Of a stretch of DNA of 64,000 bases, positions 8,457 to 14,449 are shown piece by piece. The DNA is from Promethearchaeota archaeon (GTDB taxonomy: Archaea > Asgardarchaeota > Lokiarchaeia > Sigyniarchaeales > SOKP01). Each line of letters begins with the position of its first letter. Position 1 is the first letter of the stretch. Location of the stretch: assembly GCA_048937405.1 (NCBI GenBank), contig JBHLNF010000007.1, positions 64,001 to 128,000 on the forward strand. The letters run 5' to 3'. The notes under the pieces are model-generated. The model was not told where the DNA came from. It did no database searches and saw only the letters and a list, made by a program, of their open reading frames with translations. The position numbers and the translations under genes are program-made.

Positions 8457-8609
8457 TTGGCTCCAGTAGATAAAGAACTTCAAGAAGAAATTAAAAAAGG
8501 TGTAACTCTTCAAAAAGTTGATGAAGCAGAATTAAAGAGACGTGAAGAAGAAAAAAAGAAACGTATGGAAGAATTAGAAAAAGTAAAAGCAGCTCTAGGT
8601 GAAAAATAA
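8457..8609 (+). CDS. Uncalled 50-aa mini-protein with WH2-like motif and charged single helix
   Basis: TTG start with AGGTG SD about 10 nt upstream; MAPVDKELQEEIKKGVTLQKVDEAELKRREEEKKKRMEELEKVKAALGEK; T-rich tract downstream. Confidence 0.75.
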   Translation: MAPVDKELQEEIKKGVTLQKVDEAELKRREEEKKKRMEELEKVKAALGEK

Positions 8610-10879: not shown

Positions 10880-10939
10880 AATTAAATAATAAAAATATTA
10901 TATTGATCAAAATAGGTGTCACATTTTTAATCATAAGCA

Positions 10940-11200
10940 ATGATCCCTCAAGCCCATAAAAATGTGTCTCTAAATCACCATATTGAAAATCGCGTTTCCT
11001 CTTGATTTGGATTGTGGTAAACAATTCACTCTCGATCCTGAAGAACTTAACTATTTAAAGAACCAAGAACACCGAAATGTCTTATTTTTCAACGGTCTTA
11101 TTTTTCATCGAATCAGAAATTATCAAACATTCCAGAAATTGATTACAACAAATTTTACAGTTCTGAAAATGATCAGAAAAAGATGGATAATTATTTATAA
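10940..11200 (+). pseudogene. Possible frameshifted zinc-ribbon gene
   Basis: With one +1 and one -1 shift reads MIPQ...SS(C)LDCGKQFTLDPEELNYLKN-RTPKCLI...DQKKMDNYL*, ending in a PIP-box-like tail. Confidence 0.35.
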
Positions 11201-11289
11201 CTAGAATCTCTATTATTCTTTTATTAGAATGAAAAATATTATACTATAGATTTTATTCAAATTACATTACAATGGAGATGTAGAAAATT

Positions 11290-11913
11290 ATGAGTCCGAT
11301 AATTACACATCAGGATGAATTAATCTTAGCGAAGACTGAGAAGGAATTAGTCTCCCAATTTAAAAAACTAGCTAAATTACAAAGCACTCTTATAGATTCC
11401 CAGAAAAAGTATGCAGAAAATCTAACTAGAGCAAATATTTTTAGAGATATGCTAAATCGAACTTTTAGAGATGTATTAAAACAAATGGAAACTCTTGCTC
11501 GAGAACATAGATCAAATATTAAGGATGAAGAGGTTAAGTTATATAGAGAAATAATCCAAAAAAATGACGATTTCATAAAAGATAATAATGCATACCTAAA
11601 TGCAATTAAAGATGTTACGATACAAAAAGAATACTTAGTTCAAAAAAAAATAGAATTTGCCGATGCCTTAGCTAGTGTTGCAAGTAGAAGATCAACTGTA
11701 ATTAGAAAAGCTTTGAATGTTGAAAAAGCGAAAAACAAATTAATCGATGGTGATAAATTAAACATTCTCGACCAACAACTTAATGATGTTCAAAGAGATT
11801 TTGATAGAGCACGAGATATATTATTAAAAAAAATATATCAGTTTGTTGAAGTAAGAGATGAGATTAATACCTTGTGGATCAAATTAAAAGATACTATAAC
11901 CGAATTAAGTTAG
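11290..11913 (+). CDS. All-helical coiled-coil protein, BAR-domain-like
   Basis: 207 aa of long helices; C-terminal DKLNILDQQLNDVQRDFDRARDILLKKIYQF recalls helix 3 of SNX/Vps5-type BAR domains (by eye). Confidence 0.5.
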   Translation: MSPIITHQDELILAKTEKELVSQFKKLAKLQSTLIDSQKKYAENLTRANIFRDMLNRTFRDVLKQMETLAREHRSNIKDEEVKLYREIIQKNDDFIKDNNAYLNAIKDVTIQKEYLVQKKIEFADALASVASRRSTVIRKALNVEKAKNKLIDGDKLNILDQQLNDVQRDFDRARDILLKKIYQFVEVRDEINTLWIKLKDTITELS

Positions 11914-12039
11914 AAAAAAAACTTTCCCTATCTTCTATTTTTTTTTAATAAAAAATATTAGGCTTAAACTTAAATTTATTAAATTAAAATCCATTAAATT
12001 AATAGTAAAAATAAAAAATACTTGATATAAAGAATTAAA

Positions 12040-12501
12040 ATGTGTGCCGAAGAATTTGCAAGCTTCTTAGATAGTACTCGAAAAGCGCCATTGGAAGAAA
12101 AACTGAATGCATTTGGCGATATCATTGAAAAAATTATGTCAATTGTTTTACGCATACCAGATTTAGTAGATCAGTCTCTTGGTTCTGTAAATGATAAAGT
12201 ATCAAATTTACAAAATCAAATAAATTCTTTAAATAGCCAAATAACATCTCTACAGTCTAGATCAGGGGTAACTCCAACGGCATCCGCTCCAGCGGCACGT
12301 ACCCCAGGCGGTCCTCCAGGAGGCCCTCCAGGATCTCCACCACCAACACCAGGTGGTCCACCAGGTGGTCCACCAGGCGGTTCAAGAGGACCTGGTGCTC
12401 CACCCGGTCCTAGTCGTCCTGCAAGTCCAGTTTCGCTTAGAGGTGCTATAATGGGAGAACTTAAACAGTTGTTTGCAAAGAGAAAGAGCCAATCTGGCTA
12501 A
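12040..12501 (+). CDS. Coiled-coil / Pro-Gly-rich / C-terminal basic amphipathic helix protein (NPF- or VASP-like architecture)
   Basis: Heptads VNDKVSNLQNQINSLNSQITSL; PGGPPGGPPGSPPPTPGGPPGGPPGG; tail SLRGAIMGELKQLFAKRK. Confidence 0.6.
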   Translation: MCAEEFASFLDSTRKAPLEEKLNAFGDIIEKIMSIVLRIPDLVDQSLGSVNDKVSNLQNQINSLNSQITSLQSRSGVTPTASAPAARTPGGPPGGPPGSPPPTPGGPPGGPPGGSRGPGAPPGPSRPASPVSLRGAIMGELKQLFAKRKSQSG

Positions 12502-12697: not shown

Positions 12698-14449
12698 TTG
12701 GAACCAACAAAAGAGAGATCCGTTAAAAGTGCTAATGTTAGAGTCGCCCATGACTTGCAAAGACAGATATTAGAAATGACTTCCTTTTTAAGAGTCATGA
12801 ATAATTACTATAAAAAAAAAATAGAGCTTCAAAATCGAGTAAAACCATTTATTCAAAGAATGTACAAAGGGGAATTAAAAGAAATTAATGAAAATGAATA
12901 TTGGCTTTATACGATACCACTTGCTTTAAATGTGCTGAGTAAAGCTTTTTTAAATAAAGAAGATTCGTTTAAATTTCCTGATAGCATTATTTTATTTGAA
13001 GCATGGATGCATTTAGGTATTAATGCACTGTATCCTCGAATTGCGCTTCAATTTCAATTTCCAGGATTATTTAGAGGTGAAAAAGTAAGGAATATTTTTC
13101 AATTTATTTATTCTACTTCCCGTGGATTTGGCTTTCCAATGAATTTTGGACCAGAATTCTATACTTATAAACCCAAGCTGGCTCGTATTCTGGATCCATT
13201 ATTAAGATGGAGTTACACCGTATGTCATCGAGCTAATCAAGCAATTTTATTAGGAAATAAACTTTTAAAATCTAAAAGACATCATCCAGGTGATTTTGAA
13301 TCAGTTATAATATCCGAATTTACTAATCATATATTTAAAGGAATTGATACAATCTTACATGGATATTTTAAAAATGAAGCAAAAGATTTAGATAAATTTT
13401 CTTCCTTAAACGATCTCCTTTCAAATTCTACTTTTTATTATTCTATTGGAGATCATGCAATGAGAATTGAAAGTGATAATTTAAACAAAGTTTTATCTAT
13501 TCCTTTAGTGACTCATGAATTTATAGTAAAAAAGTATGCGGTTGACTTCAAATTTTACGTTAAAACCCTCTTAGAAGTAAATAAAATGTTAATAAAGAAA
13601 ATAAACTATTACAGAGAACTGAGGAATAATCTTATCAGAAAATTAAATAAGAAAGACAAAGTTAAATTAAGGACTGAACAATCAAAGCATTTTGCGAAAA
13701 AAATTGCTAGAATGTCCCGAAAACTTTCGAAGAAATATCCAATTATTGATATTTATAGCCACAATAAAACATTATTAGAAAAAATTAGGGAACTTTTATT
13801 TACTACACCAATCTATATGCACGCAAGTCAATTTCCTGAAAATTCTCAAACAAATTCTAATAAATTATCTAAAAGTAGAGAAAAAATTGATAGAATTAAA
13901 AATAAATCAGTAGACTCAATTTTATTATTATATATTAAAAAATTTGAAAAGAATCATAATTTTAAATTTGAGGAAGAAGAAGTTTTAGATGAACTGGAGG
14001 GATTACATAATATTATCACTAAAATGTGGATAGCATTTAAAGAAAATCATTTTAGATTTGCAATGAATAAATTAAATGCATTATCAACGCTTGGTATATA
14101 TGAAAAGAATTATAAAATTAAAATTAATGAACTTTTAGATGAACTTCTTCCTATTTTAGCCATTTATGAGATGTTTAACAGACCATTATTTGAATCAGTA
14201 TATCCAGAGTCGATTCCACAAACTAAAAGACTTGGAACATATTTTGCTCGTTTTTTAGCATCAAAATATAACCTTTTTGGTACTAATTTAATGAAAATAA
14301 TCAATAGATTAGCTTTTCATAATTGGAGTTACCTCATAATTAAGAAACAAATGAATAGGAGAGAATTTTTTAACTATCTTCTGAAATTGCCAATCTGGAA
14401 ATATATTCCCTCAAAAATAAAAACACGAATAATTGAACAAAATAATTAA
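12698..14449 (+). CDS. Hypothetical helical protein
   Basis: 583-aa ORF, no recognised motif. Confidence 0.7.
   Translation: MEPTKERSVKSANVRVAHDLQRQILEMTSFLRVMNNYYKKKIELQNRVKPFIQRMYKGELKEINENEYWLYTIPLALNVLSKAFLNKEDSFKFPDSIILFEAWMHLGINALYPRIALQFQFPGLFRGEKVRNIFQFIYSTSRGFGFPMNFGPEFYTYKPKLARILDPLLRWSYTVCHRANQAILLGNKLLKSKRHHPGDFESVIISEFTNHIFKGIDTILHGYFKNEAKDLDKFSSLNDLLSNSTFYYSIGDHAMRIESDNLNKVLSIPLVTHEFIVKKYAVDFKFYVKTLLEVNKMLIKKINYYRELRNNLIRKLNKKDKVKLRTEQSKHFAKKIARMSRKLSKKYPIIDIYSHNKTLLEKIRELLFTTPIYMHASQFPENSQTNSNKLSKSREKIDRIKNKSVDSILLLYIKKFEKNHNFKFEEEEVLDELEGLHNIITKMWIAFKENHFRFAMNKLNALSTLGIYEKNYKIKINELLDELLPILAIYEMFNRPLFESVYPESIPQTKRLGTYFARFLASKYNLFGTNLMKIINRLAFHNWSYLIIKKQMNRREFFNYLLKLPIWKYIPSKIKTRIIEQNN

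Follow-up and report, generated by a model that had tools for sequence, protein, structure and literature searches.

Does the 207-amino-acid (aa), all-helical protein encoded in an AT-rich stretch of a Promethearchaeota genome belong to the proteins that shape membranes and place actin in Asgard archaea? The stretch analysed here, hereafter the window, comprises 64,000 nucleotides (nt) of contig JBHLNF010000007.1 (assembly GCA_048937405.1, positions 64,001 to 128,000 of the forward strand; G+C about 26%). An earlier interpretation made from its letters alone (the sequence-only reading) had seen in this protein a BAR-like partner of a neighbouring proline-rich (Pro-rich) protein resembling an actin nucleation-promoting factor (NPF). 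Dynamic actin-dependent protrusions occur in cultured Loki-type Asgard archaea, for which linkers between Lokiactin and the membrane, nucleators and elongators are still to be found (PMC13716822; PMC9433394), and the actin nucleation machineries of Asgard archaea have been stated to be undiscovered (PMC9433394). According to our structure predictions, the 207-aa protein most probably exists as an obligate antiparallel dimer that has a BAR-like architecture and basic tips. We hypothesize, with a probability of roughly 0.4, that this predicted dimer is a compact BAR-like peripheral membrane scaffold, restricted to one lineage and without detectable membership of the BAR sequence families.

The open reading frame (ORF) is a real gene under strong purifying selection. 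Comparison with 12 orthologues gave ratios of nonsynonymous to synonymous substitution (dN/dS) of 0.05-0.16, and the protein is conserved above the flanking radical-SAM and Pelota-like proteins when the same loci are compared; a spurious ORF was ruled out by conservation together with the dN/dS values. The gene is present in one copy, as a single full-length match was obtained in the whole 4.47-Mb assembly. At E<=0.01 the protein has 510 homologues; among the 120 matches listed, nearly all are 207 aa long, identities lie between 78 and 94%, and every named record is labelled 'hypothetical protein'. The named records of the family are metagenome-assembled genomes (MAGs) of Promethearchaeota/Promethearchaeia (Loki-type), and a locus scan with the single protein returned close MAG relatives only, several of them with implausible submitter labels. 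When 1.84 billion cluster representatives were scanned exhaustively with HMMER, only 37 clusters of the family emerged, and identities of its full-length members were as low as about 20-24%. Among 301 sampled genomes of the Asgard phylum, the family profile (alignment A1, which also served for AlphaFold2) matched 64 of the 68 genomes of f1, the family to which the window belongs, and 6 of the 7 of f2, its sister family in the same order, with just two marginal matches outside that order. Our verdict is that this is a new family, restricted to one order of Loki-type Asgard archaea. Its invariant or nearly invariant features are W196, R60, D61, R71, K107, R134, R173 and K180, together with the N-terminal motif M(S)PI(I/V)T. 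Near-universal, single-copy and constrained in a lineage that builds protrusions, the gene is a concrete candidate for studies of membrane binding and protrusion localisation.

The AlphaFold2 model built on A1 (predicted local distance difference test, pLDDT, 91.3; predicted template modelling score, pTM, 0.75) is almost wholly helical and consists of three long helices (Table 1). Both the helical character and the size, about that of one BAR monomer, had been anticipated by the sequence-only reading, and the model has the arrangement of BAR monomers, three long antiparallel helices within about 200-250 residues. The same arrangement, in about 200 residues, is found in the classical BAR proteins arfaptin (1i49, 4dcn) and FAM92A/CIBAR1 (9uhd, 8ceg). 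In a Foldseek search of the PDB, most rows belong to the BAR superfamily (SNX1, APPL, MIM, arfaptin, amphiphysin, Lsp1, FAM92A and IRSp53); the best template modelling (TM) scores, 0.65/0.68, were those of arfaptin-2, with a root-mean-square deviation (rmsd) of 4.3 Å, and FAM92A reached a TM score of 0.57. Arfaptin was again the best structural match in the exhaustive VIA search (Z 13.5, rmsd 4.8 Å, 186 aligned residues), followed by SNX1 (Z 12.0), Lsp1 (11.6) and ACAP1 (11.5), and BAR-superfamily chains filled 13 of the 20 top rows; the I-BAR chains stood below arfaptin (IRSp53, Z 10.9; MIM, 10.6). Language-model neighbours beyond the family's own clusters were BAR, FAM92 and Bin3 clusters at 0.82-0.87, which we took as a lead only.

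The case for a scaffold is carried further by the predicted homodimer, for which the interface score ipSAE was 0.82 as against 0.00 for the best of three controls. Of 30 proteins whose structures were solved as one-chain pairs, 20 attain the pass mark of this prediction, compared with 1 of 23 whose structures are of single chains. Separate runs agreed in at least 88% of contacts, and the pLDDT of the partner was at least 86. In the predicted contacts (20-58, 27-51, 34-44 and 37-41), residue i of helix 1 pairs with approximately residue 78-i of the other copy, so that the predicted dimer is antiparallel and its dyad falls midway along helix 1. All of helix 1 belongs to the predicted interface (residues 6-72, 76-91 and 171-206), along with the N-terminal end of helix 2 and the C-terminal stretch of helix 3, and the conserved hydrophobic residues L13, L20, F24, L27, L34, Y41, L45, L55, M66 and L69 all lie inside it. 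In the crystal dimer of the FAM92A BAR domain, helices 1/1' and helices 3/3' are antiparallel and the N-terminus of helix 2 is buried (PMC12269497); the interface predicted here uses the same three elements. The sequence-only reading had named an AlphaFold homodimer, with an expected crescent of six helices, as its check. An antiparallel six-helix dimer centred on helix 1 was indeed predicted in silico, whereas the fit to solved BAR proteins is loose and profile similarity is absent, as detailed below.

As in classical BAR proteins, the tips of the helical hairpins are basic. The distal tip carries a net charge of +6 over its 20 residues (+4 within residues 131-140), and at K146, K148 and K150 in it, at least 80% of the 21 diverse family members compared have a basic residue; the window's copy as a whole has an isoelectric point (pI) of 9.2 and a net charge of +5. 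On the scaffold hypothesis, two three-helix chains would form a six-helix rod held together by helix 1 over its full length, by the first part of helix 2 and by the last part of helix 3, and the conserved basic hairpin tips of this rod would bind acidic membrane surfaces. Membrane binding, a preference for curvature and a tie to actin are what we infer from this model, and a role at the membrane or with actin is plausible on the basis of the prediction. The family has a predicted BAR-like dimer architecture and goes undetected by domain databases.

Several lines of observation weigh against such a scaffold, the first of them from sequence comparison. No Pfam family of the BAR clan (BAR, Vps5, Arfaptin, FAM92 and IMD) matched the window's protein at E values up to 1, nor any of the 21 diverse family members at E<=0.1. 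In six-frame searches of the genome, the Vps5 profile (PF09325) matched at other loci only, the BAR (PF03114) and Arfaptin (PF06456) profiles matched nowhere, and the FAM92 profile (PF06730) did not touch the 207-aa locus. The segment DKL...QRDFDR...F, which the sequence-only reading had compared with helix 3 of SNX1/Vps5, was thus not borne out by any Vps5 or BAR match in the Pfam or six-frame searches, and at the sequence level no membership of the BAR families can be detected for the protein. The Pfam scans of the protein and of the 21 members gave no meaningful match to any other family either. Two sub-threshold Pfam matches, to Vps4_C (E 0.066) and to Mod_r, were dismissed; PDB sequence matches of the protein and of its profile (apolipophorin-III, E 0.0017, and designed coiled coils) were rejected as coiled-coil noise.

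The second line comes from a genuine BAR family of the same order, which was uncovered because of the language-model atlas lead and served as a positive control. Its members are about 215 aa long, begin with MFKKFMD... and pass the Pfam cut-offs for FAM92 and BAR (loci L061-L074; for example the gene L061:617-1261:+). Both families are stand-alone proteins of similar size with three helices; unlike the near-universal 207-aa family, the FAM92/BAR family is patchy, with members in 19 of the 68 genomes of f1 and in 2 of the 7 of f2, and the six-frame search with the FAM92 profile found no gene of it in the window's genome. Folded likewise, the control gave a model with pLDDT 85.3 and helices at residues 2-55, 57-128 and 138-206. 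It obtained 72 Foldseek matches at E<=0.001 (FAM92A, E 3.5e-7, TM 0.84, rmsd 2.0 Å), and VIA matched it to arfaptin (Z 17.2, rmsd 2.3 Å), all of the first 32 rows being occupied by the BAR superfamily. In contrast, the 207-aa model had no Foldseek match in the PDB at E<=0.001 (best E 0.026, the top BAR matches lying in a range of about 0.03-0.1), it fits solved BAR proteins at an rmsd of 4-5 Å rather than the 2-3 Å of the true Asgard BAR protein, and its helix 3 has 49 residues as against 69 in the control, being about 20 residues shorter than in classical BAR proteins as well. Alignment of A1 with the profile of the genuine family (A3) by hhalign gave a probability of 1.6%, and an hmmsearch with the A1 profile over the ORFs at the FAM92 loci gave no match. 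Since the control fits far better and the hhalign probability is so low, the 207-aa family is BAR-like in general architecture only. In these archaea, as the comparison makes plain, the proteins that are 'BAR-like by fold' form a set apart from those that are 'BAR by family'.

Further points against the scaffold concern the specificity of the fold and of the dimer. Bundles that are not BAR proteins scored nearly equal in VIA, namely the N-terminal region of SipB (3tul, Z 11.3) and the coiled-coil domain of PcsB (4cgk, Z 11.2), and Z values below about 13 are common for helical bundles in this search. The shape search of the ESM Atlas returned a BAR cluster mixed with PcsB coiled-coil, M23-peptidase-family and EspA clusters at TM scores of 0.55-0.69, in which a Bacillota hypothetical-protein cluster and the M23-peptidase family reached 0.65-0.69. 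In our judgement, the modelled protein matches known structures no better than as a 'long three-helix bundle'. The trypanosome haptoglobin-haemoglobin receptor is a further long three-helix bundle of comparable kind outside the BAR superfamily. PcsB, SipB and this receptor act at the surface or in secretion in bacteria or parasites and have other partners, and the 207-aa family shows no sequence relation to them; to our knowledge, an antiparallel six-helix dimer centred on helix 1 has not been described for any of the three. As for the dimer, part of its passing score may stem from solved BAR-like dimers that the predictor has memorised. Moreover, because the dyad lies in the middle of helix 1, the chains would overlap almost fully and leave short arms rather than a long crescent, which is a difference from classical BAR proteins; from the contact list, the predicted dimer would be a compact rod of roughly 12 nm. 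Finally, the net charge is variable within the family, whose pI values span 5.4 to 9.2.

The same predicted dimer could also be the building block of a polymer or lattice, the protein then being a cytoskeletal or membrane-remodelling protein comparable to ESCRT-III/PspA or to a filament former. Conservation on all helix faces, which is unusually high for a coiled coil, fits a protein with many protein-protein contacts, and Vipp1 (VIA Z 9.2 over 142 residues) and CdvB are among the fold matches. However, no Snf7 or PspA match appeared in the Pfam scans of the window's protein and of the 21 family members, and the three long helices of the model differ from the ESCRT-III/PspA/Vipp1 pattern of a helix 1-2 hairpin followed by short helices 3-5. 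Helix lengths and topology suit BAR-like bundles better, and the BAR rows score higher, which makes a lattice-forming protein improbable in our view.

The gene neighbourhoods, which are otherwise housekeeping or RNA-related, add to the points against a membrane scaffold. In f1 the order is Pelota-like, radical-SAM, 207-aa and Pro-rich gene, followed by a 583-aa gene or by Elf1. In the f2 genomes G210, G089 and G282 (two of genus g10 and one of g12), the 207-aa homologue follows Rrp4-Rrp41-Rrp42-L37Ae-Pcc1, and the same cluster lies upstream of a metagenomic member of the family (P0153). In the f2 genus g11, the outer neighbours are RtcB-like and archease-like ORFs, recognised by reading and without a Pfam scan. 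These neighbourhoods introduce a serious rival, in which the protein would be a dimeric coiled-coil adaptor with a non-membrane housekeeping role (in RNA processing, translation quality control or chaperoning) and its likeness to BAR proteins would reflect a shared bundle geometry. The three distinct gene contexts are all informational, and the nearly equal scores of non-BAR bundles and the missing sequence tie to BAR proteins fit this explanation as well. On the other hand, no nucleic-acid-binding or chaperone family was matched in the Pfam and PDB sequence scans of the 207-aa family, and unrelated, highly expressed genes are often present in archaeal housekeeping clusters. In addition, a divergent paralogue in the genome G165 starts 22 nt after a gene with a sub-threshold match to Longin, a domain type linked to membrane traffic, and the predicted dimer interface fits the BAR pattern. 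We consider a housekeeping adaptor rather unlikely, and the compact BAR-like scaffold remains the interpretation that we prefer.

According to the ORF list, the sequence-only reading had given the coordinates and size of the 207-aa gene correctly, as well as its distance of 126 nt from the NPF-like (Pro-rich) gene. It had also made synteny of this pair across Lokiarchaeia a test of its proposal, and the outcome was divided. The Pro-rich gene adjoins the 207-aa gene in every f1 genus sampled, which counts as a single observation since the entire block is syntenic. In g11 (loci L034 and L038), both homologues are encoded on one strand, the Pro-rich one immediately upstream of the 207-aa one and with different outer neighbours, so that the adjacency has been kept with the order swapped. 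Nevertheless, the two genes are unlinked in the f2 genera g10, g12 and g13, and in the single-contig genome G210 the Pro-rich gene lies 259 kb from the 207-aa homologue, beside Elf1; both observations also count against the scaffold as a partner of the Pro-rich protein.

Members of the Pro-rich family (alignment A2; loci L046-L058 among others) were found in 193 of the 301 Asgard genomes, across many families. They are 130-190 aa long; their N-terminal part is helical, their middle is rich in Pro/Gly, and they end in a conserved tail that is invariant as SLRGAIMGELKxLFxKR in A2 (SLRGAIMGELKxLFxKRK in the window and G(G)LMGELKxLLAARRKK in other lineages). We take this tail to resemble the G-actin-binding motif of Ena/VASP; a PDB sequence search with the tail gave no match to an actin-binding motif and hence no support for the resemblance. 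At the loci examined in other Asgard lineages, no three-helix partner stands beside the Pro-rich gene. Because of its far wider occurrence and the lack of such a partner elsewhere, the Pro-rich family is older than the 207-aa family and independent of it. The frequent adjacency offers a faint suggestion that the 207-aa dimer and this widespread Asgard protein could cooperate at the cell envelope or at protrusions.

In a full version of the module proposed by the sequence-only reading, a true, divergent BAR homologue would recruit the VASP-like Pro-rich protein, and perhaps a nearby WH2-like peptide, to curved membrane and so drive Lokiactin protrusions. The BAR-like predicted fold and dimer and the adjacency preserved in two gene orders agree with this model. 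Vps5-BAR homologues have been reported in Asgard MAGs (PMC10307638), and in the L. ossiferum protrusion study (2026), two 'BAR-domain proteins' were detected, not significantly enriched, by co-immunoprecipitation with Lokiactin (PMC13716822); these may well be FAM92-type proteins, however. A FAM92/BAR gene is itself followed by a Pro-rich paralogue and a Roadblock/LC7 gene at one locus (L067, G267:C47, 299-1977, minus strand), which likewise favours the model, but the arrangement occurs at only 1 of the 14 FAM92 loci and is absent from the other 13. Further objections are the lack of any homology signal to BAR proteins, the unlinked genes in three f2 genera, and the presence of the Pro-rich family in 193 of the 301 genomes as against 73 for the 207-aa family, so that the former does not depend on the latter. 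Within the window, a run of nine T lies about 20 nt 3' of the stop codon of the 207-aa gene and may be an archaeal terminator; the two genes may thus be transcribed separately, and co-transcription is doubtful because of this T-run. Taken as a whole, the full model appears unlikely.

A conceptual parallel can be drawn with the I-BAR protein IRSp53, which is reported to act together with Ena/VASP in filopodium initiation (PMC9565809). In both cases a helical dimer serving as membrane scaffold, here a predicted one, would be joined with a partner, here a protein with an oligomerising coiled coil, a proline-rich middle and a short basic helix at its C-terminus, whose gene lies beside that of the dimer. 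Unlike IRSp53, the 207-aa protein carries no SH3 or other recruiting domain. By this analogy, a compact BAR-type dimer specific to the Loki order might dock on the membrane through its basic tips and, with the Pro-rich protein, place Lokiactin assembly at protrusions, as a prokaryotic counterpart of IRSp53-VASP that arose independently of the eukaryote-like FAM92/BAR family. We give this idea only a slim chance.

Table 1. Features of the 207-aa gene and its downstream neighbourhood, in window coordinates.
Feature	Position	Strand	Basis and remarks
Gene for the 207-aa all-helical protein (P0001)	11290..11913	+	ATG-started ORF, translation
Helix 1, residues 7-70	11308..11499	+	AlphaFold2; forms the predicted antiparallel homodimer core, with the two-fold axis close to residue 39
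Helix 2, residues 79-149	11524..11736	+	AlphaFold2; N-terminal end (76-91) contributes to the predicted interface
Basic distal tip, residues 131-150 (RR..RK, EKAKNK)	11680..11739	+	Charge and conservation script
Helix 3, residues 154-202 (49 residues)	11749..11895	+	AlphaFold2; C-terminal half (171-206) in the predicted interface, invariant W196
AT-rich 126-nt spacer with a run of nine T	11914..12039	+	Sequence read directly
Pro-rich neighbour, 153 aa: helical/coiled-coil N-terminus, Gly-Pro-rich middle, basic C-terminal helix	12040..12501	+	ORF, alignment

The WH2-like peptide had been placed 2.7 kb from the 207-aa gene, and this distance holds: the 50-aa ORF at 8457..8609 (+) lies 2.68 kb upstream. 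It contains LQEEIKKGVTLQKV, which fits the spacing L-x3-I-x2-G-x2-L-x-K-V that we take to be the WH2 consensus. Pfam and PDB sequence searches with this ORF gave no match and no actin-binding motif. Its position between GNAT-like and Pelota-like genes is kept in genera g2 and g3 (76% identity at L039 and 47% at L040).

The spacer upstream of the 207-aa gene (10890-11285) measures about 410 nt in the window and about 100 nt in relatives. As some 180 nt of it recur on contig C29 of the same genome with 84% identity, a small repeated insertion is suggested. A 73-aa ORF at 10983-11204 is probably not a gene, its conservation in relatives being only partial. Downstream, the Pro-rich gene is followed by a 583-aa ORF (12698-14449, +) that has no Pfam match; since it is absent in some genomes of the same genus, where Elf1 directly follows the Pro-rich gene, it appears to be a variable insertion.

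Some other observations concern relatives of the Pro-rich gene. It is duplicated in tandem in one genome (G237, L049), and at three loci (L051, L054 and L058) there is, no more than about 3 kb away, a gene whose N-terminal sequence reads by eye as that of a Rab-like small GTPase. The 136-aa Pro-rich paralogue at L067 is low in proline and ends in NELRDLLEKRK.

Variants of the 207-aa protein itself are few. Looking for longer fusions among proteins of 364-2000 aa yielded none, and the sole fused member found is a metagenomic protein of 344 aa (P0139), whose N-terminal extension of 140 residues contains a CxxC motif and a coiled coil and matched no known family. The gene context of this member differs from that of the 207-aa locus and includes no Pro-rich neighbour. 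The divergent paralogue in G165 encodes 209 aa with about 21% identity, and the gene that precedes it encodes 155 aa (Longin match, E 3.8e-4); the pair lies at L035 (G165:C27, 6004-7122, minus strand). A C-terminal ending similar to that of the G165 paralogue is present in P0160, the most distant metagenomic member of the family.

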